From the NCBI GenBank assembly GCA_016206145.1, contig JACQSA010000030.1:1-43018 (forward strand): DNA of 43,018 bases. The letters are read 5' to 3'. Positions 6,595 to 42,730 of the stretch are shown here, piece by piece (the stretch's first letter is position 1; the number at the start of each line of letters is the position of its first letter). The DNA comes from Candidatus Uhrbacteria bacterium (GTDB taxonomy: Bacteria; Patescibacteriota; Patescibacteriia; JACQRZ01). The notes under the pieces were generated by a model that was given only the letters and a program-made list of their open reading frames with translations, made no database searches and was not told where the DNA came from. Both the position numbers and the translations under genes were made by a program.

Positions 6595-6598
6595 GGGG

Positions 6599-8536: not shown

Positions 8537-8546
8537 ATTCAGATTT

Positions 8547-9317
8547 TTAGATCAAATTTTCTAAATCTTCAAGGTCGCTAGAGAAAGGGTATTCTTGTTT
8601 CCACATCGCTGGCATTATAAAATAGAAGTATCGGGGATCTAGAAAAATTTTTCCTGTAGCTTTTTGGTATGCTTCATAGAGTTCATCAAAAATTTCCTCT
8701 TCATCTCGCCCTTCAAGTGTTTGTTTTGCAAACCACTCCTCAGCGCTCTTACAGTCTTCGTATGGGGCATTGATGATCTTATATCTCTTTTTCCATTCTT
8801 TTGGTAACAGGGTGTGAAAGTGTCCTACATGCATGGCTCGTTTACCGTCAGGATCATATGCTTTGTACAGATCCCAAAGTGTTTCCTCTTCATCTCGCCC
8901 TGCAAGTGTTTGTTTTGCAAAGAATGTCCTTGCTTTTGTGAGATCCTCGAGCGTGGCAGTAAATGAGCTTCCTTCGATATATTGTGTCTTGCGAAGCGCA
9001 TCCCAGTACTTCTTTATATTTACAGGTAATGCGTCCTGTCCAGAAGGAACGATCTTTTGGAATAAAAATCTTCGCACGTATCTTCCTAGAAGCTCAGCAA
9101 AATACCTATCATTTTTTCTGTCACTTGTTGCCTCATTTTCTTTCTTGATGCGATGCTCTAGAAATCGTACCATAGCAATGCCAAAACTGTGAGCACGTTC
9201 GGGTTGTCCCCTTTCAAATTCTAATAGGCGTTCCTCAATTTTCTTGCCGGGAACTTTCTTGTTTCGCAAATCTCTCTCAATCCCTTCGGGAGTTATTGGT
9301 TTTTGATTTCTATGCAT
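8547..9317 (-). CDS. Hypothetical protein with an internal ~55-aa duplication, embedded in the aro operon
   Basis: 256 aa. [22 protein letters not shown]...[10 protein letters not shown] is repeated as [22 protein letters not shown]...[10 protein letters not shown]. No family recognised. Confidence 0.6.
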
Positions 9318-9326
9318 ACCTAGACA

Positions 9327-11458: not shown

Positions 11459-11589
11459 TCCGTTAGAAGCAGATCGCGATCAGAAGATGCGAGCCTGCGT
11501 AATTATGAGTAAGTTTCTTTTCATAGTATGGTAATGAGTATGGCCGTTACAAGCGATCGCGGCTTCTAACGGGATTCATAAAACAGGGT
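11459..11589 (-). promoter_or_regulatory. Structured intergenic element between tyrA and the DAHP synthase gene
   Basis: A perfect 11-bp long-range pairing (11460-11470 with 11562-11572) is extended by GATCGC/GCGATC (11473-11478 with 11553-11558). The helix ends one nt from the DAHP synthase ATG. Confidence 0.4.
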
Positions 11590-12345
11590 TTAGGGGCTAG
11601 GGATTAGGGATTTTTCAATGGATGTTAGCGTGGTAAACAATTTTTTGCGGATCGCGCGTGTGTAGGGATTATAGTGTTGCATGTCAGAAAACAGTTGCCA
11701 AGAGTCATGTCGCACCATTGTTTGCATAGAAAGTAGAGATTCATAATCTGGCGTCGAGATTCTTTGCTGTCGCAAGCGCAGTGGCTCCAAGCTCCTTCCT
11801 ATGAGATGGACGAGGGCTTGCGATCGAGCCATCGCCTTATCGTGTTGCAGGGGCGTTGCATGAATAAGCACAAGTCCAAGAGTTTTGAGCATACTCTCAA
11901 ATACTTTCATTTGATGTGGCGTTGCTCGGAGTCTGTGCAGTACAATCTTTTTTCCCGCAACTCCATTCTTTCCAGAATCAGGTCCAAACAGAGGGTGCGT
12001 CGCAATGAGCGGCTGATTTTTGGGAAGGAGTTTTTTCATAAGTCTTGCGGGATGAAGTTTTACGGAGCACCCGTCAATGACGAGCGTGTGTTTTTGTAGA
12101 AGTGGCGCTATATCTCTACAGCAGGATTCTATCTGAGAAATCGGAACAAGGAGAAATAGCATATCTGTCTTGACGACTTCCTCGAGGTTGGCAAAGCGAA
12201 CACCTCGAGGAATTCTTGCAGAAACTCCTCGTTTGTCATGTACAAGGATAGTACCAAAGGAAGTAAGGCAAGAAGTCCATAGCTTGCCAAATCGTCCATA
12301 GCCGATAACTCCAATTGTGATTTTGTTTTTCATAGATTTTGTCAT
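11590..12345 (-). CDS. tyrA: Prephenate dehydrogenase
   Basis: 251 aa. Rossmann motif IGVIGYGRFG plus a PDH-type C-terminal half. An alternative ATG lies at 12333. Confidence 0.85.
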   Translation of the reverse strand: MTKSMKNKITIGVIGYGRFGKLWTSCLTSFGTILVHDKRGVSARIPRGVRFANLEEVVKTDMLFLLVPISQIESCCRDIAPLLQKHTLVIDGCSVKLHPARLMKKLLPKNQPLIATHPLFGPDSGKNGVAGKKIVLHRLRATPHQMKVFESMLKTLGLVLIHATPLQHDKAMARSQALVHLIGRSLEPLRLRQQRISTPDYESLLSMQTMVRHDSWQLFSDMQHYNPYTRAIRKKLFTTLTSIEKSLIPSP

Positions 12346-12359
12346 CCTAAACGTTCTTG

Positions 12360-12504
12360 TGTGTCATTCCCGAGGGACTCCGATGGCTTTGAGTCCGATA
12401 TTCATCGGACCATCGGAGGAACCGTGGCAATCCCGTCGCAGGTCACGAGTATTCTGAGAGATTTCATTAGCGTCGGGATCCCTCGTTTGCACTCGGGATG
12501 ACAG
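12360..12504. repeat. ~145-bp palindromic, highly structured element between aroE and tyrA
   Basis: Inverted terminal copies of GTCAT(T)CCCGAG..GGGA (12363-12377 vs 12479-12502). Nested hairpins CTCCGATG/CATCGGAG and GTCCGAT/ATCGGAC. A related TGTGTCATTCCGA lies at 13305-13317. Confidence 0.5.
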
Positions 12505-13321
12505 AATGAATTTTTTCTTTTATCTCTCCCGAGACTTCCTCTCCTGCCCACAAATGAATTTGCGCAAACGCCTGTTCAAAAAACATATCAATGCCACTTA
12601 TTGTTTTTGCTTCCGCTTTTTTCGCTTCTCGCAAGAGTCGTGTCTCCCGTGGGTTGTATACGCAATCAAATACAACTTGATGTGGTGAGAAGGAAAAATT
12701 TGTAAGTGGAGTCTCGGTGGTGTTTGGGTACATTCCTACAGACGTTGTGTTAATTATGATGTCAAAATTCTTATTTTCCACTTCATCTCGCGTCAGAATT
12801 TCTCCACCAAAAACATTTTTAAGAGCCAAAGCTTTTTCATGGGTACGGTTGAGATAGGATAAGCGCCCGTCGTTTTTTTTGACCATCCAGGCGGCAGCTT
12901 TTGCTGCTCCACCCGCACCAATGATAAGAACTCCCTTGTCTTTCATTGCAGTATCATCGAATGCTTTCTGAATACCAATGACATCTGTGTTGTACCCACG
13001 GAGCACACCGTCCTTATTCACGATCGTATTAACTGACCCTATCTCCTTCGCCTCCTCATCTATGTTGTCGAGATATGCCATGATAGTTTCTTTATGAGGA
13101 ATAGTCACAGCTGTTAGATGGATGGGTAGAGTGCGTATGGTTTGTACGATCGATGGAAGGTCGGTGCAAGGAAATGCAAGCATGATCGCATCTATTCCTA
13201 GGAGTTCATAGGCGTTCGTATGAAGGAGTGGACTGAGTGAATGCTCGAGAGGATAGCCGATCACGGCATTCAGTTTTGTTCTATTCGTTGGGGTCATATC
13301 GTTTTGTGTCATTCCGATCAA
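12467..13321 (-). CDS. aroE: Shikimate dehydrogenase
   Basis: 284 aa. NAVIGYPLEHSLSPLLHN and GAGGAAKA motifs. The true start is probably an internal ATG (13312 or 13297). The last ~12 codons (VIPSANEGSRR) are supplied by the palindromic element. Confidence 0.9.
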   Translation of the reverse strand: MIGMTQNDMTPTNRTKLNAVIGYPLEHSLSPLLHTNAYELLGIDAIMLAFPCTDLPSIVQTIRTLPIHLTAVTIPHKETIMAYLDNIDEEAKEIGSVNTIVNKDGVLRGYNTDVIGIQKAFDDTAMKDKGVLIIGAGGAAKAAAWMVKKNDGRLSYLNRTHEKALALKNVFGGEILTRDEVENKNFDIIINTTSVGMYPNTTETPLTNFSFSPHQVVFDCVYNPRETRLLREAKKAEAKTISGIDMFFEQAFAQIHLWAGEEVSGEIKEKIHSVIPSANEGSRR

Positions 13322-13757
13322 GATGATGCAAAAAGTTCATAAGAGCTTCAACAGCTTCTTCGTACCCTTTTTCTTTTTTCCCGCTGATTTGGGTAATACA
13401 GGCAGGCGCGAAGACAGATTGCGCGCGCCACGCCTCTCGCGCGTGTATATCAGAGAGGTGTACTTCTATGCATGGCAAGCGAGTATCGACTATGGCATCA
13501 TGAAGCGCGTAGCTATAATGCGCGAGCGCCCCTGGGTTGATAATGATGCCGCACGCATCAGGAGAATTTTTTTGGATCCAATCAATCAATTCACCTTCGT
13601 GATTTGATTGGAACGCACGGACGGTATACCCACGCATCGCTGCCCTCACTTCTACAAGTTTTTCTAGATCAGCAAGCGTGAGTGATCCGTATTGTTCCTG
13701 ATCACGTGAGCCAAGGAGATTGAGATTTGGCCCATGAATCAATAAGATTGTTTTCAT
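13281..13757 (-). CDS. aroQ: Type II 3-dehydroquinate dehydratase
   Basis: 158 aa. LLIHGPNLNLLGSRDQEQYG and NPGALAHYSYALHDA motifs. Confidence 0.95.
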   Translation of the reverse strand: MKTILLIHGPNLNLLGSRDQEQYGSLTLADLEKLVEVRAAMRGYTVRAFQSNHEGELIDWIQKNSPDACGIIINPGALAHYSYALHDAIVDTRLPCIEVHLSDIHAREAWRAQSVFAPACITQISGKKEKGYEEAVEALMNFLHHLDRNDTKRYDPNE

Positions 13758-14284
13758 AGCTTTGGTTTTATGGTTTGAACGAGATTTTCGACAACTTCAT
13801 CAAGAGAGCCATTGTTTTGTATGGTTTCGGCGGCAATCTTTTCATAGACACTCTGTCTTTCTTCCCATATTCGTTCGAATGTCTGGTATGGATTTTCATC
13901 TGGTGAGAAAAATGCTGGCTTTCCCCGCAGCATAATCCGTTCGTATACCATTTCTTGTGGGCTCGATATAAGAATTGCACGATGATTTTGAATGAGCTCT
14001 TGATTGCGAGGGTCCATCGGCGTCCCGCCGCCTAGCGCTATGAGGATTTGCTTCTCAGCTGAGAGAATCTTTGCCAGCGTCTCATGTTCAAGATCCCGAA
14101 ATATTTTTTCGCCTTGGGAAGCGTAGATTTCTCTGCATGTCAAAGAATTATCCGTGCGTTGCAAGTGAGTCTTTTCTATTTCTCTATCAAGATCGATAAA
14201 CGGCAATTGCAATTCTTTACTTGCGCGCTGCCCGATGGTGGATTTTCCTACATGCTTGAATCCTATAAGGATAATGTGGCCCAT
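13754..14284 (-). CDS. aroK: Shikimate kinase
   Basis: 176 aa. P-loop IGFKHVGKST and ALGGG motif. 4-nt overlap with aroQ. Confidence 0.9.
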   Translation of the reverse strand: MGHIILIGFKHVGKSTIGQRASKELQLPFIDLDREIEKTHLQRTDNSLTCREIYASQGEKIFRDLEHETLAKILSAEKQILIALGGGTPMDPRNQELIQNHRAILISSPQEMVYERIMLRGKPAFFSPDENPYQTFERIWEERQSVYEKIAAETIQNNGSLDEVVENLVQTIKPKL

Positions 14285-14316
14285 AAGATTAGCGTTTAAG
14301 TTACAGGTTGTAGTGA

Positions 14317-15624
14317 TTATTGAATTTTTATATCTGCTCCGAGATTTTCCATGAGCTCCACAAACTCAGGGAAAGTTTTTTGTATCCCCTCTGCCGTATC
14401 GATCGTGGTCTCTCCTTCTGCCTTGAGTCCTGCTATTGCAAGAGCCATAATTGTTCGATGGTCATTGTATCCATGCAAAGTCGCTCCTGTAAGCGCGCTT
14501 TTTGAGATAGTCATCCCGTCAGATCTCTCTTCAATTTGTCCTCCCATTTTTTTGAGCTCTGTAGCCATTGAATGAATTCGGTCCGTCTCTTTGAGTCGCG
14601 CATGCTTAACATTTGTAAGAATAGTCTTTCCTTGTGTCACTGTCCCTAGTACGGCAAGTGTTGGCACAAGGTCTGGCGTATCATTGCAGTCGATTGATAT
14701 ACCGTGCAATTGTGTGCCGCCTCGTATTATGAGTCGTCCACCATCCACCGTGATTTGAGCGCCCATTTCTTGCAGAATCTCAATAATTTTTTTATCCCCC
14801 TGTGGGTCTTCCATATCAAGGCCATTGACGGTTACTTCTCCTTCGCTGATAGCCGCTGCGGCTATTATGTATGAGGCTTGAGAGAAGTCAGCGGGGATTT
14901 TTTTTGTGAATTGGTGATACTGTTGCCCGCCTTTTACCTTGAATGTGTCTTTTGTGCCATCAACCTTCCACTCGTACGATATACCCTGCTCATGGAGCCA
15001 TCTCGTTGTCATTTCCACATATGGTCGTTCGTTGAGATTTTCTACAGTTAAAATCGAGTCATGCTCAGCAAACGGAAGTGCCATGAGTAATGCTGAAGTA
15101 AATTGCGACGTGATTCCCTCTACAGAAGTTTCGCCACCCTTGAGTGACCCACTGATTCGTATGGGATATGATTCATTCCCCTCGAGTGACGCGACACTCA
15201 TTCCAAGATTTGAGAGTGCGTGTATCAATGGAGCAAAGGGGCGCTTGCGCATCTGATCTCCACAATCAATAATTACAGGAGAGTCGACATCGGAGCGGAG
15301 TCCTAGGATTGGGAGTAGGAATCGTGATGTGATCCCTGAATCTCCCGTGTATATAGCTGTCTCCGAGGTATAGAGAGGTGTTCCGCCACTTGTGACTTCA
15401 AGGAGAAGAGTTCTATCAGAATTTTTTTTGTGTTGAATTGATGCGCCCAACGCGGAACATACGGCAATCGCAGATTGTGTATCTGTTGAGTCAAGAGCGT
15501 GGTCAATGGTGCTTGTGCCCTTTGCGAGAGTAGCAATAAATAGCGCGCGGATCGTCTGCGATTTGGATGGTGGTGGCGTCATTGTGCCACTGAGTTGTTT
15601 TGTATTTTTTATAATGAGATTCAT
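14317..15624 (-). CDS. aroA: 3-phosphoshikimate 1-carboxyvinyltransferase (EPSP synthase)
   Basis: The track ORF runs to a TTG at 15651 that lies inside a hairpin/U-tract. ATG at 15624 (MNLIIKNTKQLSGTMTPPPSKSQTIRAL) aligns with the usual AroA N-terminus (LPGSKSxSNRAL). Confidence 0.95.
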   Translation of the reverse strand: MNLIIKNTKQLSGTMTPPPSKSQTIRALFIATLAKGTSTIDHALDSTDTQSAIAVCSALGASIQHKKNSDRTLLLEVTSGGTPLYTSETAIYTGDSGITSRFLLPILGLRSDVDSPVIIDCGDQMRKRPFAPLIHALSNLGMSVASLEGNESYPIRISGSLKGGETSVEGITSQFTSALLMALPFAEHDSILTVENLNERPYVEMTTRWLHEQGISYEWKVDGTKDTFKVKGGQQYHQFTKKIPADFSQASYIIAAAAISEGEVTVNGLDMEDPQGDKKIIEILQEMGAQITVDGGRLIIRGGTQLHGISIDCNDTPDLVPTLAVLGTVTQGKTILTNVKHARLKETDRIHSMATELKKMGGQIEERSDGMTISKSALTGATLHGYNDHRTIMALAIAGLKAEGETTIDTAEGIQKTFPEFVELMENLGADIKIQ

Positions 15625-15647
15625 ATAATTTGATAGTTGTCCTAGAA

Positions 15648-15672
15648 ACAAAAAAACCTCTTTTTCGAGGTT
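15648..15672 (-). terminator. Intrinsic terminator-like hairpin (AACCUC-GAAAAA-GAGGUU plus a U7 run) 24 nt upstream of the aroA ATG; the attenuator terminator
   Basis: Read on the minus strand: 6-bp stem, 6-nt loop, then a run of seven U. Its 5' arm can instead pair with an upstream segment (15711-15723). Confidence 0.6.
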
Positions 15673-16543: not shown

Positions 16544-19500
16544 ATGCGTAGACGAACTTTTTTTGTTTTTAATATAATCACGATCATGAGTTTGGTTGTG
16601 AGCTTGGCACTACCGCCAAGTGCATTAGCGCAATTTGCACCTCCTCCTGGCGGTGGCGGCGGTTCTCCTCCTCCTGGCGGTGGATCTCCACCCCCTTCTG
16701 GTGGCAGTTTTGTGCCACCTCCATCAGGTGGCGGAACCGCTCCTTCAGGAAATTTTAGCGGTCCTCCCCCTGGTGGTGATCTCGGCGGAAGTCATCCAGG
16801 TGGTCAATCGAATTTAGGCGGAACACCCCCAAGCGGCGGACAGTCAAATCTTGGCGGTACCCCCCCTGGCGGTCAACAAGGTGGCCTTGATGGGCAGATG
16901 CCCGGAGGTAATCTCGGTGGCACACCCCCATCAGGCGGTTTGGGCGGGAATCCTCCGAGTGGACAACAAGGTCAGCAACCAGGAGGTCTTAGTGGACAAA
17001 CCCCAGGTGGACAATCAAATCTTGGAGGTACTCCTCCAACAGGTGGTCAGCAAGGACAACAAGGTCAACTCGGTCAAGGTAGCCAAAAGCCGGGTCAACA
17101 GGGCCAATCAGGACAATTAGGCAAACCAGGTGAAGGCGGTCAATTTCCAGGTCAAGGTGCGACACAAGGTCAATTCCCTGGTGGCGGCGCTACTGATAGC
17201 AAATTCCCCGGTCAGGGTGGACAGACGGGCTCTATCGGTACTACCCCCGGCGGTCAACAGCAAGGTGGTCAGCTAGGCAAACCTGGCGAAACAGGCCAGT
17301 TTCCTGGTGGCAGTGCTGCAGAAGGTAAATTCCCTGGACAAGGAGCAACTCAGGGAGAATTTCCAGGTGGTCCCGGCGGATCTCAGGGTCAAACAGGCAA
17401 ACCCGGCGAAACAGGCCAGTTTCCTGGACAAGGATCTACTGAAGGCCAGTTTCCCGGCAAAGGCGCAGGACAATCAGCATTCTCACAATTCAAGCTAGAG
17501 CCATGCGCTGAAGGTCAATCAAGCACAAGAGAACAGCCATGTATTTTCCGTCCCAAAGTTGAAGTGAAACAAGATTTTGCGCATACCTTAGAAGGAGAGA
17601 AAACCCGAGATTTGGGACAAAATGTGCTTGGCTCACTCGGGCAACTGGAACGCATAAAAGGCGTAGATAATGCTCAAAGACAAGCATTCGCAGAAAGAGG
17701 CGATAAACTCCAAGAATTACAGAAAAAAGCTCTCTCTGGAGATCAGGACGCAAAGGCTCAATTTGAAGCGGAAGCGAAAAGTTTTCAGTCAGACGTTGCT
17801 CAGGCAGTCCCTACCACAAAACTCGTTGATTCTTTTCTTAAAGATTTTTCAGATCAATCAAAGTCTGCGAAGAGTTTTTTTGGCGGACCGCAGCAACAGG
17901 GTCAATTCCCCGGACAAGGAACAACGCAAGGTAAATTCCCAGGTCAGGGCGCGACAGAAGGTAAATTTCCTGGAGGAGCACAGGCTCAAAAGGGCGGAAC
18001 GCAGGGTGCTACCCCCTTTCCTTCTTTTGATCAGGGATTTCAGTTTGCCGCAGATGCGCAGATTGGCCAGAAATATGCCCAGAAAGCAAAAACAGCTTGC
18101 GCAACAGATCAGGCATCTGAAGAGTGTACAGGGTTTATCAATAAGATGACCCAGTATAATAAATCTGATGAAATTAAATTCCAACAAGGTAACTTTAAAG
18201 ACTTGAGTGAAAGTCAAATTACCGCGAACTTAGAAAAAAATCAGGCAAAAGGCGAACTTCTTACGTCAGGATTTCAGAAGCTTCAAGAAAGTTTTGGTTT
18301 TAAGCCACCGGAAAAGGATAAAAAACTCGTAAGCAGCTTTAGCTCTTCGCTCGGCAAATCACTTGAAGGGCATGAACAAGGGAATCAAGCTGGTTTTGAA
18401 AAAGGCGCGAAAGAACTCGGCACCTTTAATTCCCAGCTCTCTGAGCGGTTTTCCTGGTTTGCACAAGGCGCTCCCCCCCCATCGTTTCAAATAAATGAGG
18501 AGATGCAGCGCACACAAGCGAACCTGTCCTTTAGTTCAAAGGCTCTTGAGCTCGCATCGAAATGGAAAGTGAAGGCGCCTACTTCGCTTGCAAAGACAAC
18601 TGAAGATGCGACAAAGTTGGTATCGGCAGTACAAACAGGCACTGAGCTAAATGATACCTCTCTTCTTGCTCCTGCATTTGATTATATGCAACAGAGCGGA
18701 GATAGTATGGAAACAGACATGGGTAAAATTTTCCAAGATGTTGGCAAAAAACAGTTTGGCCAGCATTTGGATACGCAGCGAGGAGAAGCGGGCGGAGTCT
18801 TTAAGGCAATGCAAGGATTTTCAAGTCAGATACCAAAAGCATTCCAAAAGACATGGAATGAAGGGTTGAAACAGGCACAAGCCTCTCTCACTACCGCTTC
18901 CAAAGCTGATAAAAAAGGAGACGCGCAAGCTGAAGAGGAAGGGTTATCGCAGAGTTTTGCTGCCGGAGCGAACCTTAAACGTTTGGCAGAAAAGTTTAAT
19001 GTGGACCTTCCTGAAGAAGTTGATAGTTTCTTTGAGAAACCAGAAGTACCAGGATTACAGGATAAATTCGATGATGATACAAAAGTAGGAGAAGCAGCGA
19101 GCGCAGTATTAGGTAAACTCCCTCCTGGTGCTGTCTTTGCGGCACAAAAAATGTTTGCTCAGATGGATCCTGCAACGTTATCTCTGATGGCACAAGCGCA
19201 CAATGAAAATCCTGATGCGTTACAGGAAGTGGTACAGCGCGGAGCATGGTTGCCGGAGAAAGCTCAGGTAGCTGTATTGAAGGGACAGATAGAAGTGCAG
19301 GATGTCGTCAATAAAGTTGAGGAAGAGATCGCTTCCATAGAAGAGGATCTGGAAGTCGAACTTAGTCCGGCGTTGAAACAAAAAGTTGAAGAAAAATTAG
19401 CGGATCTCTCTGATGATCTATTGCCAGAAGGGTCAAATGCAGCTGCGCAGGAATTACTTGGAGCTGTTCGGATACAACTTGCGGAAGTCGAAGATCCAAT

Positions 19501-20002
19501 AGAAGCAGAAGCATATCTTGAAACGCTTGTGGCAAATGTCGATCCTCTTCTTGAGTCTGCTGATGCGGAAAAATTTGAACTCGGCTATGTGCCGGCAAAG
19601 AATATTTCCGAAGATAATCCTCTCTACGATGACGGGATGGCATTGAAAGAAGGCGGAGACCTTAAGCCTCTTACCGGAAAGGATGGTAAGATCAATTACA
19701 CCAAGAATATTTCGAGAAATGAATATAAGAATTTCTTCAATGAGGTGGTTGACAAAAAGATTGCTCCTCCCAAGGGCCGTGGGACACCAAAAAAAGGCGA
19801 CGTACTTAAAGCCGGGTTGGCAGCGTTCGTCGGGTCTGATGTGCCAAAAGATCCAAACGAGCTTGTTGGGCTCGCAGAAACTTTTGGTGTGGAGAATATT
19901 AAGCCAGAGGATTTGGGTAAACCCGCAACTATTGGTGATTGCATAGAAATATTTGGCAGTTTCAAGCAGGAAACTCCCACACTTGTTACCGCAACAAAGT
20001 AA
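16544..20002 (+). CDS. Large secreted or anchored protein: N-terminal hydrophobic segment, ~450 aa of Gly/Pro/Gln low-complexity repeats, ~700-aa charged, probably helical C-terminal region
   Basis: 1152 aa. NLGGTPP occurs four times and an [QKE]FPG[QGK]G motif about eleven times. Near-identical 30-bp DNA units (e.g. 17277-17310 vs 17397-17430). Confidence 0.8.
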   Translation: MRRRTFFVFNIITIMSLVVSLALPPSALAQFAPPPGGGGGSPPPGGGSPPPSGGSFVPPPSGGGTAPSGNFSGPPPGGDLGGSHPGGQSNLGGTPPSGGQSNLGGTPPGGQQGGLDGQMPGGNLGGTPPSGGLGGNPPSGQQGQQPGGLSGQTPGGQSNLGGTPPTGGQQGQQGQLGQGSQKPGQQGQSGQLGKPGEGGQFPGQGATQGQFPGGGATDSKFPGQGGQTGSIGTTPGGQQQGGQLGKPGETGQFPGGSAAEGKFPGQGATQGEFPGGPGGSQGQTGKPGETGQFPGQGSTEGQFPGKGAGQSAFSQFKLEPCAEGQSSTREQPCIFRPKVEVKQDFAHTLEGEKTRDLGQNVLGSLGQLERIKGVDNAQRQAFAERGDKLQELQKKALSGDQDAKAQFEAEAKSFQSDVAQAVPTTKLVDSFLKDFSDQSKSAKSFFGGPQQQGQFPGQGTTQGKFPGQGATEGKFPGGAQAQKGGTQGATPFPSFDQGFQFAADAQIGQKYAQKAKTACATDQASEECTGFINKMTQYNKSDEIKFQQGNFKDLSESQITANLEKNQAKGELLTSGFQKLQESFGFKPPEKDKKLVSSFSSSLGKSLEGHEQGNQAGFEKGAKELGTFNSQLSERFSWFAQGAPPPSFQINEEMQRTQANLSFSSKALELASKWKVKAPTSLAKTTEDATKLVSAVQTGTELNDTSLLAPAFDYMQQSGDSMETDMGKIFQDVGKKQFGQHLDTQRGEAGGVFKAMQGFSSQIPKAFQKTWNEGLKQAQASLTTASKADKKGDAQAEEEGLSQSFAAGANLKRLAEKFNVDLPEEVDSFFEKPEVPGLQDKFDDDTKVGEAASAVLGKLPPGAVFAAQKMFAQMDPATLSLMAQAHNENPDALQEVVQRGAWLPEKAQVAVLKGQIEVQDVVNKVEEEIASIEEDLEVELSPALKQKVEEKLADLSDDLLPEGSNAAAQELLGAVRIQLAEVEDPIEAEAYLETLVANVDPLLESADAEKFELGYVPAKNISEDNPLYDDGMALKEGGDLKPLTGKDGKINYTKNISRNEYKNFFNEVVDKKIAPPKGRGTPKKGDVLKAGLAAFVGSDVPKDPNELVGLAETFGVENIKPEDLGKPATIGDCIEIFGSFKQETPTLVTATK

Positions 20003-29139: not shown

Positions 29140-29164
29140 ACACTTTAATTTCCCGTTGACATTC
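29140..29164 (+). repeat. 25-nt repeat ACACTTTAATTTCCCGTTGACATTC (inverted partner at 39641-39665)
   Basis: 21 nt identical, 24/25 overall, compared by hand. Confidence 0.8.
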
Positions 29165-29301: not shown

Positions 29302-29979
29302 GTGAAAAGCCTCACAATCATTTTACTAGGAGCATTCTTTGCCATCTCCCAGCCAATAATCTTGGAAGCATCAGAATCAACCGAATTTACTGATATTTCT
29401 CATGCGCTCGATATTCGATTAGAAACCGGCGAAATTTTTACTATCCCGATATTTCTCCCGGGAATTATTCAAGACAACGATGAATCAATAGAGAATTTTC
29501 AAGAACAGGAAGAAAAAAACTTGCCAGAAAAAGATACGCCTTTAGGGCAAATGAAAAAAGAAGCAGGAATAGCAAACAAAAAAATTGTTATTGATTCAAA
29601 AGAAAAAATAAAGAAAGGGAAGACACCACAAAAGACTATTGCCGCCTCTTCGGCTTCAAAAGAGAGGGTGGTGATAGTAACTGCATATTCGAGCACCGCA
29701 GATCAGACAGACTCATCTCCATGCATTACTGCAAACGGTTTTAACGTGTGTGAGCATAATAGAGAGAACATAATTGCAGCGAATTTTTTACCATTTGGCA
29801 CACGCGTTCGTTTGCCTACTATCTATGGCGAGAAAGTATTCACTGTGCAAGATCGTATGCACCCTCGTCATGCGTCGCGCGTTGATATTTGGATGAAAAC
29901 ACGTACCAAAGCGAAACAGTTTGGCGTGAAGCGTTCTACTGTCGAAATCGTCCCGGAGCAGGTTGCATTGCAACAATAG
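29302..29979 (+). CDS. Secreted 3D-domain (RlpA/MltA-like barrel) cell-wall protein
   Basis: 225 aa with a GTG start and signal peptide. The C-terminal VTAYSSTADQTDSSPCITANG...VQDRMHPRHASRVDIWM pattern is typical of 3D-domain proteins. Confidence 0.8.
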   Translation: MKSLTIILLGAFFAISQPIILEASESTEFTDISHALDIRLETGEIFTIPIFLPGIIQDNDESIENFQEQEEKNLPEKDTPLGQMKKEAGIANKKIVIDSKEKIKKGKTPQKTIAASSASKERVVIVTAYSSTADQTDSSPCITANGFNVCEHNRENIIAANFLPFGTRVRLPTIYGEKVFTVQDRMHPRHASRVDIWMKTRTKAKQFGVKRSTVEIVPEQVALQQ

Positions 29980-35380: not shown

Positions 35381-36691
35381 ATGAATGAAATTGTGTTAGA
35401 AATTAGTATTGTACTTGCACTGATTCTTTTAAATGCCTTTTTTTCCGGTACTGAGATGGCATTTATTTCTCTTCGCAAGACACGCGTGAAGCAACTTGCC
35501 AAAGAGGGAGTGCGGCCTGCAATGCTCGCTGAAAAAATGCTTCAGAAGCCAGAACATTTTCTTGCAACAATACAAATTGGCATTACCTTGATCGGGACAA
35601 TCGCTTCCGCGTATGCCGGTGCCAGTATTGCCGATGCGATCAGTCCGATTCTTTCTCATAGCCCCATCCCCTTTCTTTCAACATACGCGGAGATAATCAG
35701 TCTTGGCAGTATCATTTTGATCATCACATATCTTAGTATTGTGATCGGCGAGCTTATCCCGAAATCTCTTGGCATTAAATTTTCTGAAAGTATTGCCCTT
35801 GCTGTAGTGTATCCGCTTTACTTTCTTTCAAAGATAACTCGGCCGGTTACGAATCTTTTGACGTTTTCAAGCAATCTCTTGCTTACACCAATCGGCGATA
35901 AGACAAGTTTTAGCGAAGCAAATCTTACTGAAGAGGAGTTGCGCACGATTTTATATGAAAGCCATCGGGCAGGCACAATCAAAAAACACGAACATGAACT
36001 GCTCGACAATGTATTTGATTTTTCAGATATTGCCGTAAGCCAGATCATGACTCCTCGATCAAAAATATTCGCAATTGATATCAACGAACCATACGAACAG
36101 AATGTAAAAAAAGTCGCTGAATCAGGGTACGCGCGCGTACCTGTGTTTCGAGACAAGATTGATACTATAATCGGGACATTGAGCATTAAGGCGCTTTTGA
36201 GAAGTTTGAGCGCAGATAGTAGTACGCCTCTCAGTTCTTTTGAAAACTTGTTGTATGGACCTTATTTTGTGCCAAATACGAGACGGATCAGCGATTTGCT
36301 CAAGCACATGCAGAAAGAAAAAATCAATATGGCAATTGTAACTGATGAACATGGAGACGTGGACGGGATCGTAACTATCGAGGATATTTTGGAGGAGATT
36401 GTCGGTGACATTAAAGACGAGGATCGTCCGGAAAAAAATTTGATCACTCAAGAGAACAATGAAAATTTTGTTGTCGACGGGAGTTTGAGCATTGTTGATT
36501 TTAATCGTTACTTTAAATCGCACTTGTCTGAAGATGCGTCGTACACCACCATCTCAGGCCTTCTTCTCGACACTTTCGAGCAGATTGCCGAAGTTGGCAC
36601 AACGGCAACTATTCAGAATTTCGAATTTACCATAAAAGAAAAAACAGAACGGGTGATTACAATGGTGGGCGTGAAGCTCTTGCGATCATAA
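35381..36691 (+). CDS. HlyC/CorC (CNNM) family transporter: DUF21 membrane domain, CBS pair, CorC_HlyC domain
   Basis: 436 aa. NAFFSGTEMAFISL, IMTPR, ARVPVF, GIVTIEDILEEIVGDI motifs. Confidence 0.9.
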   Translation: MNEIVLEISIVLALILLNAFFSGTEMAFISLRKTRVKQLAKEGVRPAMLAEKMLQKPEHFLATIQIGITLIGTIASAYAGASIADAISPILSHSPIPFLSTYAEIISLGSIILIITYLSIVIGELIPKSLGIKFSESIALAVVYPLYFLSKITRPVTNLLTFSSNLLLTPIGDKTSFSEANLTEEELRTILYESHRAGTIKKHEHELLDNVFDFSDIAVSQIMTPRSKIFAIDINEPYEQNVKKVAESGYARVPVFRDKIDTIIGTLSIKALLRSLSADSSTPLSSFENLLYGPYFVPNTRRISDLLKHMQKEKINMAIVTDEHGDVDGIVTIEDILEEIVGDIKDEDRPEKNLITQENNENFVVDGSLSIVDFNRYFKSHLSEDASYTTISGLLLDTFEQIAEVGTTATIQNFEFTIKEKTERVITMVGVKLLRS

Positions 36692-36916: not shown

Positions 36917-36990
36917 GGGGGCGTGGTGAAGCGGTATCATATCTCTCTCCAAATGAGCAGTTGTTGGTTCGACTCCTACCGTCCCCGCCA
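36917..36990 (+). tRNA. tRNA-Trp (anticodon CCA) candidate with a weak anticodon stem
   Basis: Acceptor GGGGGCG/CGTCCCC, good D arm, loop CUCCAAA, T loop TTCGACT, discriminator G plus CCA as in bacterial tRNA-Trp. The anticodon stem UCUCU/UGAGC has only 3 Watson-Crick pairs and the T stem has one U-U. Confidence 0.7.
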
Positions 36991-37010
36991 GAAAATAGGC
37001 AAGAAAAACA

Positions 37011-37042
37011 AAACCGCTCCGACAATCATCGGAGCGGTTTTT
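37011..37042. terminator. Bidirectional intrinsic terminator ACCGCTCCGA-CAATCA-TCGGAGCGGT flanked by A- and T-runs
   Basis: 10-bp perfect stem between convergent tRNA-Trp (+) and the 828-aa gene (-). Confidence 0.75.
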
Positions 37043-37076: not shown

Positions 37077-39563
37077 TTACTCAGTTTCCTCTGCGTGTGA
37101 CCCACTTTTATTTTCAAATTCTTTTATTTTATCTTGTACGGTTTTATTTTGAGGATCATAGTCCAATATTTTTTTGAGCGTAGCAATCGAGGCTTCATCA
37201 TTTCCTTGTTCTTTATCAAGCAACGCCGAGCGCCAGAGCGCCACATAGTATTTGGGCTGTATGCTGCTGGCAAGCTTGTATGCAGTTTGCGCTTTATCTT
37301 GTTGTTTGAGCGCTTCAAAGTTTAGACCTAGATTATAGAATAGCACCTCATCAGCGGCGCGCAATGGGATAAGTCTGAAATTATATTCCAACGCCGTATC
37401 AAAATTTTTGATTGCTTCTTTTTTATTGTCCTGCATTGCAAACAGTGTGCCCAGATGGAAGTAGGCTTCCGGATAATCAGCCTTGAGAGCTATTGCTTCT
37501 CTTAATAGCCGCTCTGTTTCGGCGAGCGCCTTACTCGCTTCTTCTTTTGCTTGGTTTTTTTCTTCTTTCTTTTCAAGGCTTTCTTGTTGTCGTACTAAGA
37601 TCAAATATGCAGAAAGATAGAACTTTGCAAATGCGGTGTGTACGGAAGGATTTTGTGGGTCGAGCTTTAATGTTTCCGCATATGCTTGTTGAGTGAGGCC
37701 ATATCCGTTTTCAACAAAAGGAAATACTGCCTGTAAAGTATCAGCGAAATTTTGCATATTACGGGCATCACGTGGATTCAATGCAACTACTTGCTGGCTC
37801 AATGTCGCGGCATTTGTAGCCAGCGCACGCACACTCACAATATTCTCTTGCCCTCCATTGGTATTCGTAGCAAGCGAAGATGTTTTGTATACCAATGCTT
37901 GTGCGAGGGCTTTCGGATATCTGTGATTGTAAGGATCCATTTTTACCGCTCTTTCAAGGGTTGAGAGCAAATCATTGAGCTCTTGTTCACTCACTTGTTC
38001 TCCTGCCTGTATTTTTACAGAAAGAGCCCTATCTTTTGAGGTTGCTGATCGAAATGTCACATCTGCCGCATATCGCACACTTGCGAACATGACGCCTACC
38101 AGCGATATGGAAATAATAGTAAAGAGGACAAGAGAAGAGAGTATGACAAATCTATTGGAATGTTGTCCTTTAATGAGAACGAGCGAGCGGGCAGAGAGGA
38201 TAGAGAAAAATCCAATCAGCATCCAAAGGAAAAATGTGAAAGAAAAATCAATAGGCTTGATCGCTCCAAGTACTCCCAGAGTAATCATACTTCCCACAAC
38301 TCCGAGATACAGCGCATAATCATCGCCGTCTTTTTTTTGTACAAGCCACCGGATCGCTTTAAAGGCAAGCGTTACAAAAAGCAGAATAAGCGCGCCAAAT
38401 CCGATGAGTCCCACCCCTACCACTTTTGTCATCAATTGAGATCCTGACTGCAAAAATCGTTCCGCCCAGATTTTTCCGATATTTTCATTGTCGAGCTCCT
38501 TCGGCCATACGCTGATTTTGTTCGGTCGAAATTGCGTATATGCGACTCCGAAATTTCCCGGTCCATATCCAAACAGTGGACGCTCTTGAAGCGCCTTGAG
38601 CGTAATCGCAAAACTTGTGGAAAGAGAAAGTTGAGGGGCTTGCAGTGGGGCTACCACTTTAGGGACATCAACAGCGAGCATTGTGAGGGAGAATACAAGC
38701 GCAAAGCTTGGGAGTACGAGCCATGATATTTTTCTTTCATCCGAGGCTTTTACATAGAGGAACAAAAGCATAAATCCGAGACTTGCCGCCACGCTCGTCC
38801 ACAGTGCCCAATCGTCAAAAACAATCAGCGTAATCAACTGCAGACCGGTGAATAAAGAAAGCAATATCTGCAAAACCGACAATGCATGACGTCCTTTCAT
38901 TGCAAGACGCACAATCTCGGCTATTGCAAGCACAAGACCGAGCGCCGCATTGAGCCCTACTCCATTGATAAGGCCGCCGGGATACATTAACCCTGTTTTT
39001 GTTATTTCTCCCGGCAAAATAAAAACACCGAAAATTTGAAGCAATCCTGAAACAGAAAGAAGCGTTGTTGTTCCAATAAGGACTCGAACAAGATGAACGA
39101 CATGTTTTTCCGTAAATACATTAGTGCTGATAATGATCAAAATAATCAAAGATCCAAGCGTGGCAAAGCTTGTGCTTGCGTGTCCTTCAAGCCCTACGAA
39201 ACTCACATAGGGATATAATGAGAGGAAACTTGCCACACACCAGACAATGGCTAAGAGAAGAAGGGTAAGAGTGAGAAATGATCCTCGAATACGCACCGAT
39301 TGAGTTGATACGATATGAACTCCATAGACAATACTTGCTATAAGCGTGCCGGCAAAAAGTAATGTTTGCTTATTGAGATCAAAGAGGTCGTCTGTTACCC
39401 CTAGAAAAAAGAAAGGAATACCAAATAGCAGTATCCCATAGACCCATTCAAGAAAGAGTGTGGTTTTTTCGTCACCCCCTTGGTGTTTTTTTGTTTTTTT
39501 TCTGTCGCGCGAGTTTTCCACGGGTTCATCATGCTCGGCGATTTTTTGTGATACGATAGCCAT
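37077..39563 (-). CDS. O-antigen ligase/polymerase-like (Wzy_C-type) polytopic membrane protein with C-terminal TPR repeats
   Basis: 828 aa. More than 10 TM segments, LFGYGPGNFG and a ..SQLMTKVVGVGLIGFGALILLF block of the Wzy_C type. The C-terminal ~330 aa hold several TPR-like units (e.g. ADYPEAYFHLGTLFAMQDNKKEAIKNFDTALEYN). Confidence 0.75.
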   Translation of the reverse strand: MAIVSQKIAEHDEPVENSRDRKKTKKHQGGDEKTTLFLEWVYGILLFGIPFFFLGVTDDLFDLNKQTLLFAGTLIASIVYGVHIVSTQSVRIRGSFLTLTLLLLAIVWCVASFLSLYPYVSFVGLEGHASTSFATLGSLIILIIISTNVFTEKHVVHLVRVLIGTTTLLSVSGLLQIFGVFILPGEITKTGLMYPGGLINGVGLNAALGLVLAIAEIVRLAMKGRHALSVLQILLSLFTGLQLITLIVFDDWALWTSVAASLGFMLLFLYVKASDERKISWLVLPSFALVFSLTMLAVDVPKVVAPLQAPQLSLSTSFAITLKALQERPLFGYGPGNFGVAYTQFRPNKISVWPKELDNENIGKIWAERFLQSGSQLMTKVVGVGLIGFGALILLFVTLAFKAIRWLVQKKDGDDYALYLGVVGSMITLGVLGAIKPIDFSFTFFLWMLIGFFSILSARSLVLIKGQHSNRFVILSSLVLFTIISISLVGVMFASVRYAADVTFRSATSKDRALSVKIQAGEQVSEQELNDLLSTLERAVKMDPYNHRYPKALAQALVYKTSSLATNTNGGQENIVSVRALATNAATLSQQVVALNPRDARNMQNFADTLQAVFPFVENGYGLTQQAYAETLKLDPQNPSVHTAFAKFYLSAYLILVRQQESLEKKEEKNQAKEEASKALAETERLLREAIALKADYPEAYFHLGTLFAMQDNKKEAIKNFDTALEYNFRLIPLRAADEVLFYNLGLNFEALKQQDKAQTAYKLASSIQPKYYVALWRSALLDKEQGNDEASIATLKKILDYDPQNKTVQDKIKEFENKSGSHAEETE

Positions 39564-39640
39564 AGATAAATGTGAATAAAATAAAAAATAAGCACCTATA
39601 GTGTATCAAGGAATACCCATCGGTGCAATATGAAACTGTA

Positions 39641-39665
39641 GAATGTCAACGGGAAATTAAAATGT
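39641..39665 (-). repeat. 25-nt repeat (partner of 29140-29164), overlapping the stop codon of the 231-aa gene
   Basis: The reverse complement reads ACATTTTAATTTCCCGTTGACATTC. Confidence 0.8.
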
Positions 39666-40352
39666 TCCTGTCGTAATAACCGTTATGCGCTGCGTGTAAT
39701 CCCCCGCGCCTGTCGCGCTTGAGGGGGATGCGCTAAAGACAAGCGTTACTGCTTTGCCGCTTACCGGACTGCTATCCGTAGAAAATGTTTTTGGCGATGT
39801 GGTGATGTCTGTGTAGGTAGAATCAAACGAACCATTTGATGTTTTGAATCCATATTTTCCAGAACCTGCTGAAATCTCTGTGGGATTGTCTGATGCTCCG
39901 GCAATCGTTTGTCCAGAGTCTGTCGTTAATCTCAACGATCCGTCAGCAACAATTGTAGATGCATAGCCTCCCTCCGCGTTGGTGGTGATTGTTACTCTGA
40001 TATTGTCAGTCTTTACCGAAGAAGTCGAAAGCGGACCAAATTCTACTGTATTTGGTTTATTTGCGCCGTCAGGATCAGAAAACTGCACTGTGAGAAACGG
40101 TATATCTTCAAGCCCACGAAATCCAGGAGTCAACACATAGGATGCGCTCGAAAGGTCTGTAGACGCCATGTCGCAGACCGATCCTTGCACGCGATAGTTT
40201 GTGGAGCTGCCATTGGTACTCCCGCATCCGATAGAATTAAAAAGGATTTTATAATTCGAAGATGAGAGCATTTCGCTTCTCACCGGCTCCATTCCCAGGA
40301 TAAGCATAACACAAAGTCCGACGACAAGTCCGACGCGTATGTGCGTGTTCAT
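39657..40352 (-). CDS. Secreted Ser/Thr-rich beta-type protein with three SSxNY-like motifs
   Basis: 231 aa. Signal/anchor MNTHIRVGLVVGLCVMLILG. SSSNYKI, SSTNYRV, SSASYVLTPGF. No family name recalled. Confidence 0.65.
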   Translation of the reverse strand: MNTHIRVGLVVGLCVMLILGMEPVRSEMLSSSNYKILFNSIGCGSTNGSSTNYRVQGSVCDMASTDLSSASYVLTPGFRGLEDIPFLTVQFSDPDGANKPNTVEFGPLSTSSVKTDNIRVTITTNAEGGYASTIVADGSLRLTTDSGQTIAGASDNPTEISAGSGKYGFKTSNGSFDSTYTDITTSPKTFSTDSSPVSGKAVTLVFSASPSSATGAGDYTQRITVITTGTF

Positions 40353-40357
40353 ATAGA

Positions 40358-42730
40358 TTATTCCCTGCCCATAATCATCCAGTTTGTTCCGTCGCTGATG
40401 ATCTGGCGAAATCCGTAATTTGCATTGATAGCATTTGTCGCAGATCCATCAATTGTTTCTGCACCGCTTGGATCAATGGTAATGTTATTTGTTCCTGCAT
40501 TCCCCCCCTCATCTTTAATGATATAGACACGGCCGGTAATGCTTGCTGCGGTAGGAAGGTTTAGTGTACGCGCAGAAGTAGATGTCATGCCGATATAATA
40601 ATCTGTCGCAGTTGCAGTATAGGTAGTAGCCGCGGTTCCCGTACGGAGCACCCCGATACTGCCGCTTACATCAAGAGATTCATTTGGCGTAGTGGTGAGA
40701 ATACCGACATTTCCAGTTGCAAACGCCGCGGCATAATGCGTACCAGCCCCGCCAGTCATTGCATCTACATACAATCCATATGTGCGCGTGGTCCCTGCTG
40801 CGGTTGCTGTGTTTATTTTAAGCGCATATGAATCAGAAATTGTTACACTCCCCGCTCCTGCCGGCGCGCCGTCAATAGCAAGAAGCGCCGCATCGTCAAT
40901 TGTTAACGCAGAAGCGTCGGTTATGCTTTGCTGATCTATATTTACTGTCTCCACTTGGGTTGTTACTGGTATGGTTCCTGTATAGGTAAGCGTGGAAGGA
41001 TCAATAAAAAACGTGGTATATACATTCCCTGCGGCTGAAGCAAGCGTTATTGCCGGAGTCACAAACCGATGCGCAGTGACATTTGCAAGCGTTGCCCTGC
41101 TGTCAATCGCATACATATCAGTAGTGCCGAGCGTTCCTGATGCACTGATTTTGAGCTGGTCGCCATCATCATTATCAAGGCCAAAAGAGTATGCGCCAGT
41201 TCCTTCCGCAATTTCGAAATTGATAACAGGATCATTTCCATTTGTATGCGTAAGAATAATTGCAGTAGTAGATGCGGCAGTGGCCGATAGAAGATCAAGT
41301 GTGCCATTTGGCGAAGCGTCACCTAAACCCAGGTCACCTGAACCATTTAGGAAAAGAATGCCACTCTCGTCATTTGAAACATATAGAACCGTCTCTGCAT
41401 TTCCAAGGCTCGTTCTGCCCGTTGTGCCATTTGATTTCGATCCACTAAGGTATATTGCCGGCGTTGAATCTGTCGGATCATTACTACCCATTACACCGAG
41501 AATCCGTAAACCAGGTGAGTCCGAATCTGACACACCAGTCAACAAAGCACCGCCGGTACCTAATCCGCCACCGTTCAACGCCCCTATCTGAAAGAAGGTT
41601 CCAGTTTCCAGTTGTTGTCGAAAGGTACCGTTATGAAGCGCAGTAAGTCCATGCGCCACATCGTCAGCGCTCATTGAGAATGCGTTTGCTATAGCTGTTG
41701 TTTTATTGAGTTCCAAAACATAGTCTGGTGTCACATCACTTCCGATTCCAACATTTCCAGAAGCAAATGCCGCAGCATAGTTGTTTGTCGCGCCCGTCAT
41801 CGCATCGACGTACAATCCATATGAGTTTGTAGCCGCTCCTACTGCGGCAGTCAATACTCTCAAAGACGAAGCATTTGTAATCGCTGTATTTGCTCCTACG
41901 GTTGGAGCCCCCAAAATCCCAAGAGTTGACGCATGAGTGAGGGTTTGGGTTGCCGCAGTAGCGCTATACGTCCGAGAACGGATCAACATAGTTCTTTGCG
42001 TTGCCAAATCAGCACCTGTGGTGTACTGCAACCCATTTGTTGCAAAGTCAAAATCAAGATCAATTTTTTCGCTCGTTACCGCTTGCGCAGAGTATGCGCC
42101 TGCCTGCCATACTGTTGAAGTCGCGGTTCCTGATGTGACGGTTTCCCCTGTCGCAGTAGTATGAAATTTTAAAAAGCGAGCAGAGTCAATGCCATCCAGT
42201 TCGTCAGCATTATACGCATACGCACTTCCACCCACTCTCACGCGCGGTGTCATCTCAGCATCACAGCCAGAATCCGCAGATGTACAGGCAGTAACACCGA
42301 TATAAATTCCAGAAGCATTAAAATCAAGAGGCAGTACTGGCATATTAGTAACAGTGCTATCTCCAAGATTTACTGTAAAAATTCCCCGCGTAACTGTTGT
42401 TGCTATGCCTCGCGCGATCGAATTTGTAATTGGACAGTTCGTTAATCCGGTTGCGTTCGTTCCTGTTGTCCAAAGGCAGTTTCCACCACTTGAAGCATCA
42501 TAAAAGGCAAATTTTAAATAGACAGTTGAGCTGTCTGCAAGGGGCACATAGCTATTGTCTGTAATTCTTCCTTGAAAAATTAAAGGCTTATTGCGAGTGC
42601 TTGAGGCGGCATTTAATGAAAAATATCCAGCCAAGAGGCCGACAATTATAAAAACAGCAAAAAACTCTGCGACATAGAGTTTTTTCATTACACGTAAAGG
42701 CGCAGAAAGGGTTGAAAGCGGCGTCTTCAT
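40358..42730 (-). CDS. Large N-terminally anchored surface protein, tail-fibre-like, with an internal module duplication
   Basis: 790 aa, Thr/Ala/Gly/Ser-rich. YGLYVDAMTG..YAAAFA.GNVGI occurs twice, about 345 aa apart. The C-terminal LNLPTAASITGRVYIIKDEGGNAGTNNITIDPSGAETIDG...SDGTNWMI resembles phage-fibre-like termini. An alternative start lies at 42688. Confidence 0.7.
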   Translation of the reverse strand: MKTPLSTLSAPLRVMKKLYVAEFFAVFIIVGLLAGYFSLNAASSTRNKPLIFQGRITDNSYVPLADSSTVYLKFAFYDASSGGNCLWTTGTNATGLTNCPITNSIARGIATTVTRGIFTVNLGDSTVTNMPVLPLDFNASGIYIGVTACTSADSGCDAEMTPRVRVGGSAYAYNADELDGIDSARFLKFHTTATGETVTSGTATSTVWQAGAYSAQAVTSEKIDLDFDFATNGLQYTTGADLATQRTMLIRSRTYSATAATQTLTHASTLGILGAPTVGANTAITNASSLRVLTAAVGAATNSYGLYVDAMTGATNNYAAAFASGNVGIGSDVTPDYVLELNKTTAIANAFSMSADDVAHGLTALHNGTFRQQLETGTFFQIGALNGGGLGTGGALLTGVSDSDSPGLRILGVMGSNDPTDSTPAIYLSGSKSNGTTGRTSLGNAETVLYVSNDESGILFLNGSGDLGLGDASPNGTLDLLSATAASTTAIILTHTNGNDPVINFEIAEGTGAYSFGLDNDDGDQLKISASGTLGTTDMYAIDSRATLANVTAHRFVTPAITLASAAGNVYTTFFIDPSTLTYTGTIPVTTQVETVNIDQQSITDASALTIDDAALLAIDGAPAGAGSVTISDSYALKINTATAAGTTRTYGLYVDAMTGGAGTHYAAAFATGNVGILTTTPNESLDVSGSIGVLRTGTAATTYTATATDYYIGMTSTSARTLNLPTAASITGRVYIIKDEGGNAGTNNITIDPSGAETIDGSATNAINANYGFRQIISDGTNWMIMGRE

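Follow-up and report, generated by a model that had tools for sequence, protein, structure and literature searches.

Bacteria of the Candidate Phyla Radiation (CPR) live attached to other microbes, and the mode of this attachment is largely unknown. The present analysis concerns a three-gene locus of a Candidatus Uhrbacteria genome (922 kb in 61 contigs, 95% complete) that encodes a tail-fibre-like surface protein, a small secreted protein and a polytopic membrane protein, denoted here F, P and T, respectively; the window is the entire contig C19 of this assembly (JACQSA010000030.1, 43,018 nt). The closest described systems are the Pam pili, the fibres of Bdellovibrio and the ligases and oligosaccharyltransferases of the O-antigen-ligase type. 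Pam pili of Candidatus Mycosynbacter amalyticus consist of the pilins PamA and PamB, which are joined by donor-strand exchange, the tip protein PamT, the membrane-tethered chaperones PamC and PamD and the anchor PamR (Troman et al., 2026; bioRxiv 10.64898/2026.03.03.709456, PMC13278184). PamA is modified on Ser356, the pam neighbourhoods include a "tail fibre-like protein" and a corB gene, and the system is found mainly in Saccharimonadia and Microgenomatia; a protein combining transmembrane (TM) helices with tetratricopeptide repeats (TPR) is not mentioned in that report (Troman et al., 2026). The mosaic adhesive trimer (MAT) fibres of Bdellovibrio bacteriovorus are trimeric adhesins in which an invariant cell-proximal N-domain follows the signal peptide, the surface anchor of this domain being unidentified (Caulton et al., 2024; PMC10769870). 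Finally, WaaL, PglL and PglS possess a catalytic histidine and pyrophosphate-binding arginine residues, and PglS has 13 TM helices and, at its C-terminus, a periplasmic domain (PMC12800693).

We propose, with a probability of roughly 0.5, that the F-P-T operon builds a CPR-specific cell-surface attachment appendage and that it is a simplified relative of the Pam pilus and fibre cassettes. The three open reading frames (ORFs) occupy the minus strand: F (790 aa; 40358..42730) is a tail-fibre-like protein of the cell surface, mosaic in composition, that starts with a signal/anchor helix, P (231 aa; 39657..40352) is a secreted PamT-like protein with a signal peptide, three SSxNY strands and a domain of the Pam-pilin C-terminal type, and T (828 aa; 37077..39563) is a membrane protein for which 13 TM helices are predicted, along with a TPR domain outside the cytoplasm. 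An initial annotation, made from the nucleotide sequence alone, had read this region as a candidate surface-fibre O-glycosylation system, and much of its description agrees with what we find: the genes are co-directional, with gaps of 5 nt (F-P) and 93 nt (P-T) according to the ORF coordinates, and F and P are both exported and rich in Thr, Ser, Ala and Gly, these residues accounting for 47.0% of F and 44.6% of P vs 27.7% over the ORFs of the genome. The annotation also excluded a type IV pilus, and we likewise detected no match to the class III pilin leader (G|F/M-T-L-x-E) within the first 60 aa of F, P or T. What it overlooked is the resemblance of P to PamT and of F to MAT-type fibres, which argues for an appendage operon and not only for an enzyme with two substrates.

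The exported proteins P and F

Both F and P start with a charged n-region that leads into a hydrophobic helix, as is typical of Sec substrates, and neither protein contains an LPxTG motif. Past this segment, P displays the SSxNY repeats noticed in the initial annotation, in the form of SSSNY (residue 30), SSTNY (residue 49) and SSASY (residue 68); this triple motif (aa 30-72; 40137..40265, minus strand) has a period of 19 aa and includes Cys43 and Cys60. It is kept in 11 of the 11 members of the P family and lies inside the region covered by the PamT model, NF058579 (CPR_pilus_PamT), which P matches with E 2.9e-10 over model positions 4-157 of 241, at 39.9 bits compared with an equivalog cut-off of 240 bits. 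The remainder of the protein (aa ~100-231; 39660..40055, minus strand) resembles the C-terminal domain of Pam pilins (NF058581, Pam_pilin_C; E 4e-5, 23.7 bits where the cut-off is 55 bits), with a second piece of the match at E 0.1. An orthologue of 241 aa, encoded at the related locus L017, covers positions 2-148 of the 148 in the Pam_pilin_C model (E 1.8e-4), and jackhmmer searches tie P to PamT-like proteins of 226-310 aa and to Pam-type pilins of 283-345 aa, including 345-aa Pam_pilin_C proteins, on other CPR contigs. The Pfam search of P yielded no match, and the profile search of the PDB with the PamT-like alignment was empty. Taken together, these profile comparisons indicate that P, the sole Pam-like ORF of the genome, is likely to be homologous to Pam pilin-type proteins; we do not claim for it the status of an established PamT. 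By analogy with the pilins, we infer that its domain is an incomplete immunoglobulin (Ig)-like fold that would be completed by strand complementation.

F itself has no direct match in sequence searches against Pfam, NCBIfam, PHROG or the PDB, and its full-length homologues, 56-66% identical, come from close relatives. Directly after the signal/anchor segment, alignment delineates a conserved beta-rich domain with 4 Cys, here termed the N-module (aa ~41-205; 42116..42610, minus strand). The family of this module matches the N-domain of the Bdellovibrio fibres (NF053851, Bdello_MAT_N) in 13 of 15 members, with a best E of 1.6e-11 and an E of 2e-6 for the L017 orthologue of F; the PDB profile search with the N-module alignment was empty. 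These profile matches indicate homology between the N-domain family of F and the N-domain of MAT fibres, a relationship predicted from sequence. The body of F contains two copies of an internal repeat, R1 (aa 259-347; 41690..41956, minus strand), which holds the motif 'YGLYVDAMTG..AAAFA.GNVGIG', and R2 (aa 606-694; 40649..40915, minus strand); the two are 42% identical (E 4e-14, blastp) and are matched by the same homologues. The C-terminal tip domain of ~120 aa (aa 671-790; 40361..40720, minus strand) belongs to no Pfam family and shares 41-55% identity with many proteins of unrelated length, in which it often stands at both ends.

The modules of F recur in proteins with YadA_head, Collagen, Peptidase_S74 or Mtd_N domains. 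Given that Peptidase_S74 and Mtd_N are typical of phage fibres, one could view the 790-aa gene as a phage tail fibre and the locus as a prophage remnant. This origin was considered and rejected, and we regard it as hardly credible, since F, P and T match no PHROG tail family and the flanks are conserved and contain no phage genes, but rather an rRNA operon (in relatives), tRNA-Trp, corB and polA; moreover, the position of the locus is conserved across genera and F has a Sec-type N-terminus.

At locus L017, from an Uhrbacteria relative, the F orthologue contains seven tandem 51-nt (17-aa) repeats (L017:11873-12374), and therefore the length of the fibre body varies by repeat number. Beside the orthologous cluster lies a diversity-generating retroelement (L017:17098-19687) encoding a reverse transcriptase and bAvd, with a template/variable repeat pair (18512-18643 and 18956-19087, 86% identical) whose target is the 3' terminus of a 244-aa gene. 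Diversification of the fibre by such an element was rejected: the variable repeat of L017 belongs to this separate 244-aa gene, and the genome under study is without a reverse transcriptase.

Linkage of F, P and T across Patescibacteria

The initial annotation raised the question of homologous three-gene clusters in related genomes, and these do exist. F, P and T occur on one contig in at least eight close relatives, with 50-82% identity, and the gene order differs, being P-F-T in L001 and T-P-F in other CPR families. For a survey of the phylum, three profiles (F N-module, P and T) were run against the same 301 Patescibacteria genomes and the coordinates were tallied by hand. The N-module was found in 89 of the 301 genomes, at the N-terminus of ORFs of up to 6481 aa, and T-like proteins in 110, often several in each. 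Of the 58 genomes with both F and P, 37 have them no more than 10 kb apart; the corresponding figures are 16 of 38 for P and T and 14 of 44 for F and T, the last pair always on the same strand; chance co-location in genomes of ~1 Mb would amount to a few per cent, or ~1-4 of 44 for F and T, by a rough estimate that was not computed. All three families come together in at least 11 genomes, in the orders F-P-T, T-P-F and P..F-T.

Loci centered on T tell a similar story. The T family comprises 52 genome loci, nearly all of them labelled as, or matching, CPR, although some records bear other labels such as "uncultured Gammaproteobacteria". At ~20 of these 52 loci a giant ORF lies immediately upstream of T on the same strand; it carries the F N-module wherever its N-terminus could be reached (L028, L040 and L064), and for further giant ORFs upstream of T (2644-4994 aa) the N-module was found in 6 of 7 genomes. 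The genome under study contains a single N-module protein and a single T, which are neighbours, and phmmer searches of this genome detected no paralogues of F, P or T. These data show that F, P and T belong to one conserved operon, as predicted from gene order and proximity. True PamT, by comparison, was detected in 6 of the 301 genomes (243-295 bits), and in three of these (G225, G138 and G176) PamT is followed by pilins and then by an N-module fibre, in agreement with the "tail fibre-like protein" of the pam neighbourhoods (Troman et al., 2026).

Related contigs, C19 included, all break upstream of F, likely because of an intron-rich rRNA operon at this position. On the 288-kb contig of L017, the region upstream of the fibre gene holds a tRNA gene along with a 23S/5S rRNA operon that is rich in introns. 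At least three group I introns that contain LAGLIDADG ORFs interrupt the 23S rRNA gene there (L017:1247-9852), which directly precedes the fibre gene.

Five-gene cassettes related to the operon (L005, L006 and L015) add a protein of 300-360 aa with a C-terminal TM helix, which is chaperone-like, and also encode a "stalk" of 1000-1300 aa. No homologue of the chaperone-like cassette proteins (302-364 aa) was found in the genome under study. Judged by gene content, the operon in the window would be the most reduced form observed, unless the additional genes sit in assembly gaps. A second surface locus of the same genome, outside the window, occupies one strand of contig C43 (470-7852). Its first gene, cut at the contig end, is a stalk-like fragment (E 2e-50 to a 1266-aa cassette "stalk"); it is followed by a 1463-aa fibre that contains GNVGIGT repeats and ends, as judged by eye, in an S74-like region, and the last gene encodes a 559-aa Cys-rich protein.

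The membrane protein T and the proposed appendage

The AlphaFold2 (AF2) model of T, based on an alignment of 51 sequences, is of high quality by its own measures (predicted local distance difference test, pLDDT, 88.8; predicted template modelling score, pTM, 0.87). The model, the hydropathy profile and the positive-inside rule jointly predict 13 TM helices, an N-terminus on the inner side and a 78-aa outer loop after TM9. A long helix is predicted to connect this TM domain (aa 28-495; 38079..39482, minus strand) to an extracytoplasmic solenoid of TPR units, ~300 aa in length (aa 526-817; 37113..37988, minus strand). Matches to Pfam TPR families and to TPR structures in the PDB, along with the topology, bear out the periplasmic-type TPR domain of the initial annotation. 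The top 50 Foldseek matches of T consist entirely of proteins with TPR or other helical repeats and include no membrane glycosyltransferase, so that the membrane domain remained unranked, and the PDB profile search with the membrane domain found nothing. The weak NCBIfam matches of T are to chaperones of the SycD/LcrH type and to pilus or flagellar TPR proteins.

As for the membrane domain, the Wzy_C assignment of the initial annotation holds at the level of remote homology and fails at that of Pfam membership. The gathering score of the Pfam family (PF04932) is 31.7 bits, and T reaches 15.1 bits (E 0.01) in a six-frame Wzy_C search. In profile-profile comparison by hhalign, T scores 96.3-96.8% against the three proteins of the genome that pass the Pfam Wzy_C threshold, all of them encoded outside the operon (E ~1e-9 to 2e-10, 275-328 columns), vs 0.1% for the controls (SEDS, Wzx and Nramp). 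Because of this difference, T is supported, on profile evidence, as a remote member of the Wzy_C superfamily (O-antigen-ligase, GT-C_B). The alignment pairs the segment 'ERPLFGYGPGNF' in the outer loop of T (aa 298-375) with 'HPLGIGIGQY' of the Wzy_C paralogues, whose His position aligns to G374/S375 of T. Residues conserved across the 51 T sequences are E/D62, N64, K65, Q66, D/N250, R369 and S375, all located at the outer face of the membrane; R369, conserved at 88%, is the only conserved Arg in the family.

The genomic background is compatible with a glycan-related activity at this site. The nearest named homologues of the locus proteins come from Candidatus Uhrbacteria metagenome-assembled genomes. 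No LpxC was found in the genome; therefore the host is without lipopolysaccharide (LPS), in line with the condition under which the initial annotation gave its own reading more weight. Lipid-linked glycan donors are plausible in this host because its genome encodes 2 phosphoglycosyl transferases of the Bac_transf family and 2 Wzx-type flippases.

In the attachment appendage that we propose, F would be exported through Sec and would probably form a trimeric mosaic fibre, with the MAT-type N-domain next to the cell and the shuffled repeats and C-terminal tip pointing outward, where they may bind the surface of the host. P would serve as an adaptor or cap, most likely joined by strand complementation to the base of the fibre or to itself. 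T would act on F and/or P on their exit from the Sec channel: its TPR arm could dock their Ser/Thr-rich chains, and its membrane domain could move a lipid-linked glycan onto them or, alternatively, attach the base of the fibre to a glycopolymer. Among the readings considered, action of T on F and/or P at the outer face of the membrane fits best. Glycan transfer fits, in particular, because of the polar site at the outer face, the layout of 13 TM helices plus an outer domain, the likely availability of lipid-linked glycans, the lack of LPS and the precedent of a modified serine in PamA.

Several observations weigh against this proposal. P scores far under both NCBIfam cut-offs, and its AF2 model, all-beta and derived from 11 sequences, is unreliable (pLDDT 41.8). 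The N-module of the window itself does not match Bdello_MAT_N at E<0.01. No shaft pilin (PamA/B/E), PamC/D-like chaperone or PamR was detected in the 95%-complete genome, and therefore donor-strand assembly in the style of Pam is unsupported in this organism. No T was found in the 6 genomes with true PamT, though PamA is modified. With regard to T, hmmscan against Pfam Wzy_C gave no match for this protein or for 6 relatives, no conserved His is present in the 51 T sequences, one well-supported clade of the T tree lies beside murF-, lgt- and rmuC-like genes without a fibre, and the three true Wzy_C proteins elsewhere in the genome could perform any glycosylation that occurs. The glycosylation of F and P by T, the core of the initial annotation, is thereby reduced to a plausible but unproven suggestion: the topology, the TPR domain on the outside and the plausible donors speak for it, and the missing catalytic His, the three other Wzy_C proteins and the occurrence of T away from fibres speak against it.

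The lack of a conserved catalytic His in the T family, together with the lack of a detectable chaperone-like or shaft-pilin gene in the genome, is also what would be expected if T were a non-catalytic platform for assembly or anchoring that substitutes for the PamC/D chaperones and PamR, its outward TPR arm holding or chaperoning P and the base of the fibre and its Wzy_C-like domain being a mere membrane scaffold. TPR domains are protein-binding scaffolds, the weak matches of T are to chaperones and pilus or flagellar TPR proteins, and T is close to F or P and always on the same strand. However, the seven polar residues are kept even though the 51 sequences share no more than 20-25% identity, and their placement at the outer face by the GxGPG loop resembles an active or ligand-binding site; furthermore, a 13-helix domain is a costly anchor, and the T family is present also where there are no fibres. 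As an account of the locus we therefore consider such a platform rather unlikely.

The distribution of T can be taken in another direction. The fibre-free clade beside murF-, lgt- and rmuC-like genes, the presence of T-like proteins in more than a third of the genomes surveyed, often in several copies, and a possible promoter in the 93-nt gap before T that is common to another gene (see below) would all be accommodated if T were a general Wzy-type polymerase or ligase of an envelope glycopolymer, namely a wall polysaccharide, that works independently of F and P, the linkage reflecting a common neighbourhood of surface genes. Against this, the same-strand proximity of F and T well exceeds the rough chance estimate given above, the fibre-linked copies of T are spread over the remainder of the family tree (for which the context labels are rough), and the sole N-module protein and sole T of the genome adjoin each other. 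We deem this explanation improbable.

For the role of T within the cell, then, transfer of a glycan or tethering is the option that we tentatively favor, at well under even odds; the non-catalytic TPR platform is possible, if doubtful, an envelope role unrelated to the fibre is unlikely, and some other function is less likely still. A more specific version of the attachment appendage, in which the MAT-type N-domain has P as its receptor or adaptor on the cell side and T represents a new, His-less branch of the O-antigen-ligase superfamily that covalently glycosylates the fibre base or tethers it to a wall glycan or a lipid-linked one, is speculative and quite improbable. If it were true, single-membrane CPR cells would mount adhesive fibres without a sortase or an usher. 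More generally, the locus suggests a minimal attachment module consisting of a Pam-type pilin, a MAT-type fibre and a membrane protein that is mentioned in neither of the two papers on these appendages. The gene linkage thus yields candidates for the holder of the fibre N-domain at the cell surface and for the modification of Pam-type proteins, and the T family would represent, within the O-antigen-ligase superfamily, a large branch that lacks annotation and belongs to organisms free of LPS.

Flanks of the operon and comparison with known systems

Downstream, the operon ends at a strong hairpin terminator (37010..37041; 14 pairs, 7 of them G-C, with a T-run), the stem of which begins 35 nt past the stop codon of T. 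The terminator is common to the operon and to the convergent gene for tRNA-Trp (36917-36990, plus strand), and because the hairpin faces tRNA-Trp it can act in both directions, as the initial annotation had it. Upstream of F, the region to the contig end (42731..43018, 288 nt) is non-coding, again in agreement with that description. Beyond the tRNA gene lies a CorB/CNNM-type transporter gene (35381..36691, plus strand; Pfam CNNM, CBS and CorC_HlyC), which is convergent with the operon and is also present at the relatives' loci L002/L003. A 25-nt element with a TTGACA box (39641..39665, minus strand) overlaps the stop codon of P and precedes T. Its second copy, with 24 of 25 positions matching, is at 29140-29164 (plus strand), upstream of a 225-aa gene (29302-29979), and these two copies are the only ones across the 922-kb genome. 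The element may serve T as a promoter or operator inside the operon and is perhaps shared with the 225-aa gene. Elsewhere in the window, the region 5416-15651 (minus strand) encodes a near-complete shikimate and Phe/Tyr pathway, which is unusual in a CPR genome: 3-deoxy-D-arabino-heptulosonate 7-phosphate (DAHP) synthase, 3-dehydroquinate (DHQ) synthase, shikimate dehydrogenase, 5-enolpyruvylshikimate 3-phosphate (EPSP) synthase, chorismate synthase, prephenate dehydratase and dehydrogenase, and an aminotransferase. An 1152-aa ORF at 16544-20002 (plus strand) has no Pfam match at E<=1e-5.

With respect to Pam pili, the locus shares a CPR host, a small Sec-exported protein with a PamT-like N-terminal region, a likely Pam-pilin C-domain and paired Cys, an adjoining tail-fibre-like gene and a nearby gene of the CorB type, all without a sortase or type IV machinery. 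It differs from Pam in that the scores of the window proteins are far under the family cut-offs, in that PamA/B/E, PamC/D and PamR are undetected in the genome, in the presence within the operon of a 13-TM Wzy_C-like/TPR protein that is absent from the canonical operons examined, and in the host, which is of the Uhrbacteria type and not from Saccharimonadia or Microgenomatia.

The resemblance to MAT fibres consists in a signal peptide followed by a conserved beta-rich N-domain of ~130-170 aa, a variable C-terminal tip, a mosaic body with repeats common to S74, YadA and collagen fibres, and a life on other bacteria. In contrast, the N-module of the window is too divergent for a direct match to the model, which only its family achieves, F is without an S74 domain, the envelope is monoderm-like, and linkage to genes for PamT-like and TM-TPR proteins is unreported for Bdellovibrio.

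The family of enzymes to which T is compared extends beyond LPS biosynthesis, and the S-layer oligosaccharyltransferase WsaB of Geobacillus is counted among its members. T has in common with WaaL, PglL, PilO and PglS a polytopic domain in which TM9 is followed by a large outer loop, as well as a 'P-x-G-x-G-x-G' motif; with PglS it also shares the combination of 13 TM helices and a C-terminal extracytoplasmic domain. The setting, with Ser/Thr-rich exported neighbours and machinery for undecaprenyl phosphate (Und-P)-linked glycans in the genome, likewise resembles that of an O-oligosaccharyltransferase. Unlike WaaL, PglL and PglS, T is under the Pfam threshold, lacks the catalytic His and has a different Arg pattern; its C-terminal domain is a TPR solenoid of ~300 aa, and its substrate is putative. 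A parallel in layout is offered by eukaryotic TMTC1-4, TPR-bearing protein O-mannosyltransferases of the GT-C class in which the TPR arm is thought to hold protein substrates. By analogy only, both they and T join a polytopic membrane domain of the glycosyltransferase type to a non-cytoplasmic TPR arm; TMTC1-4 belong to another GT-C subclass and are likened to T by layout, not by sequence. By the thresholds of the respective models, the locus is outside the PamT equivalog and Pfam Wzy_C, and by profile comparison it is remotely related to these two families as well as to the MAT fibres.

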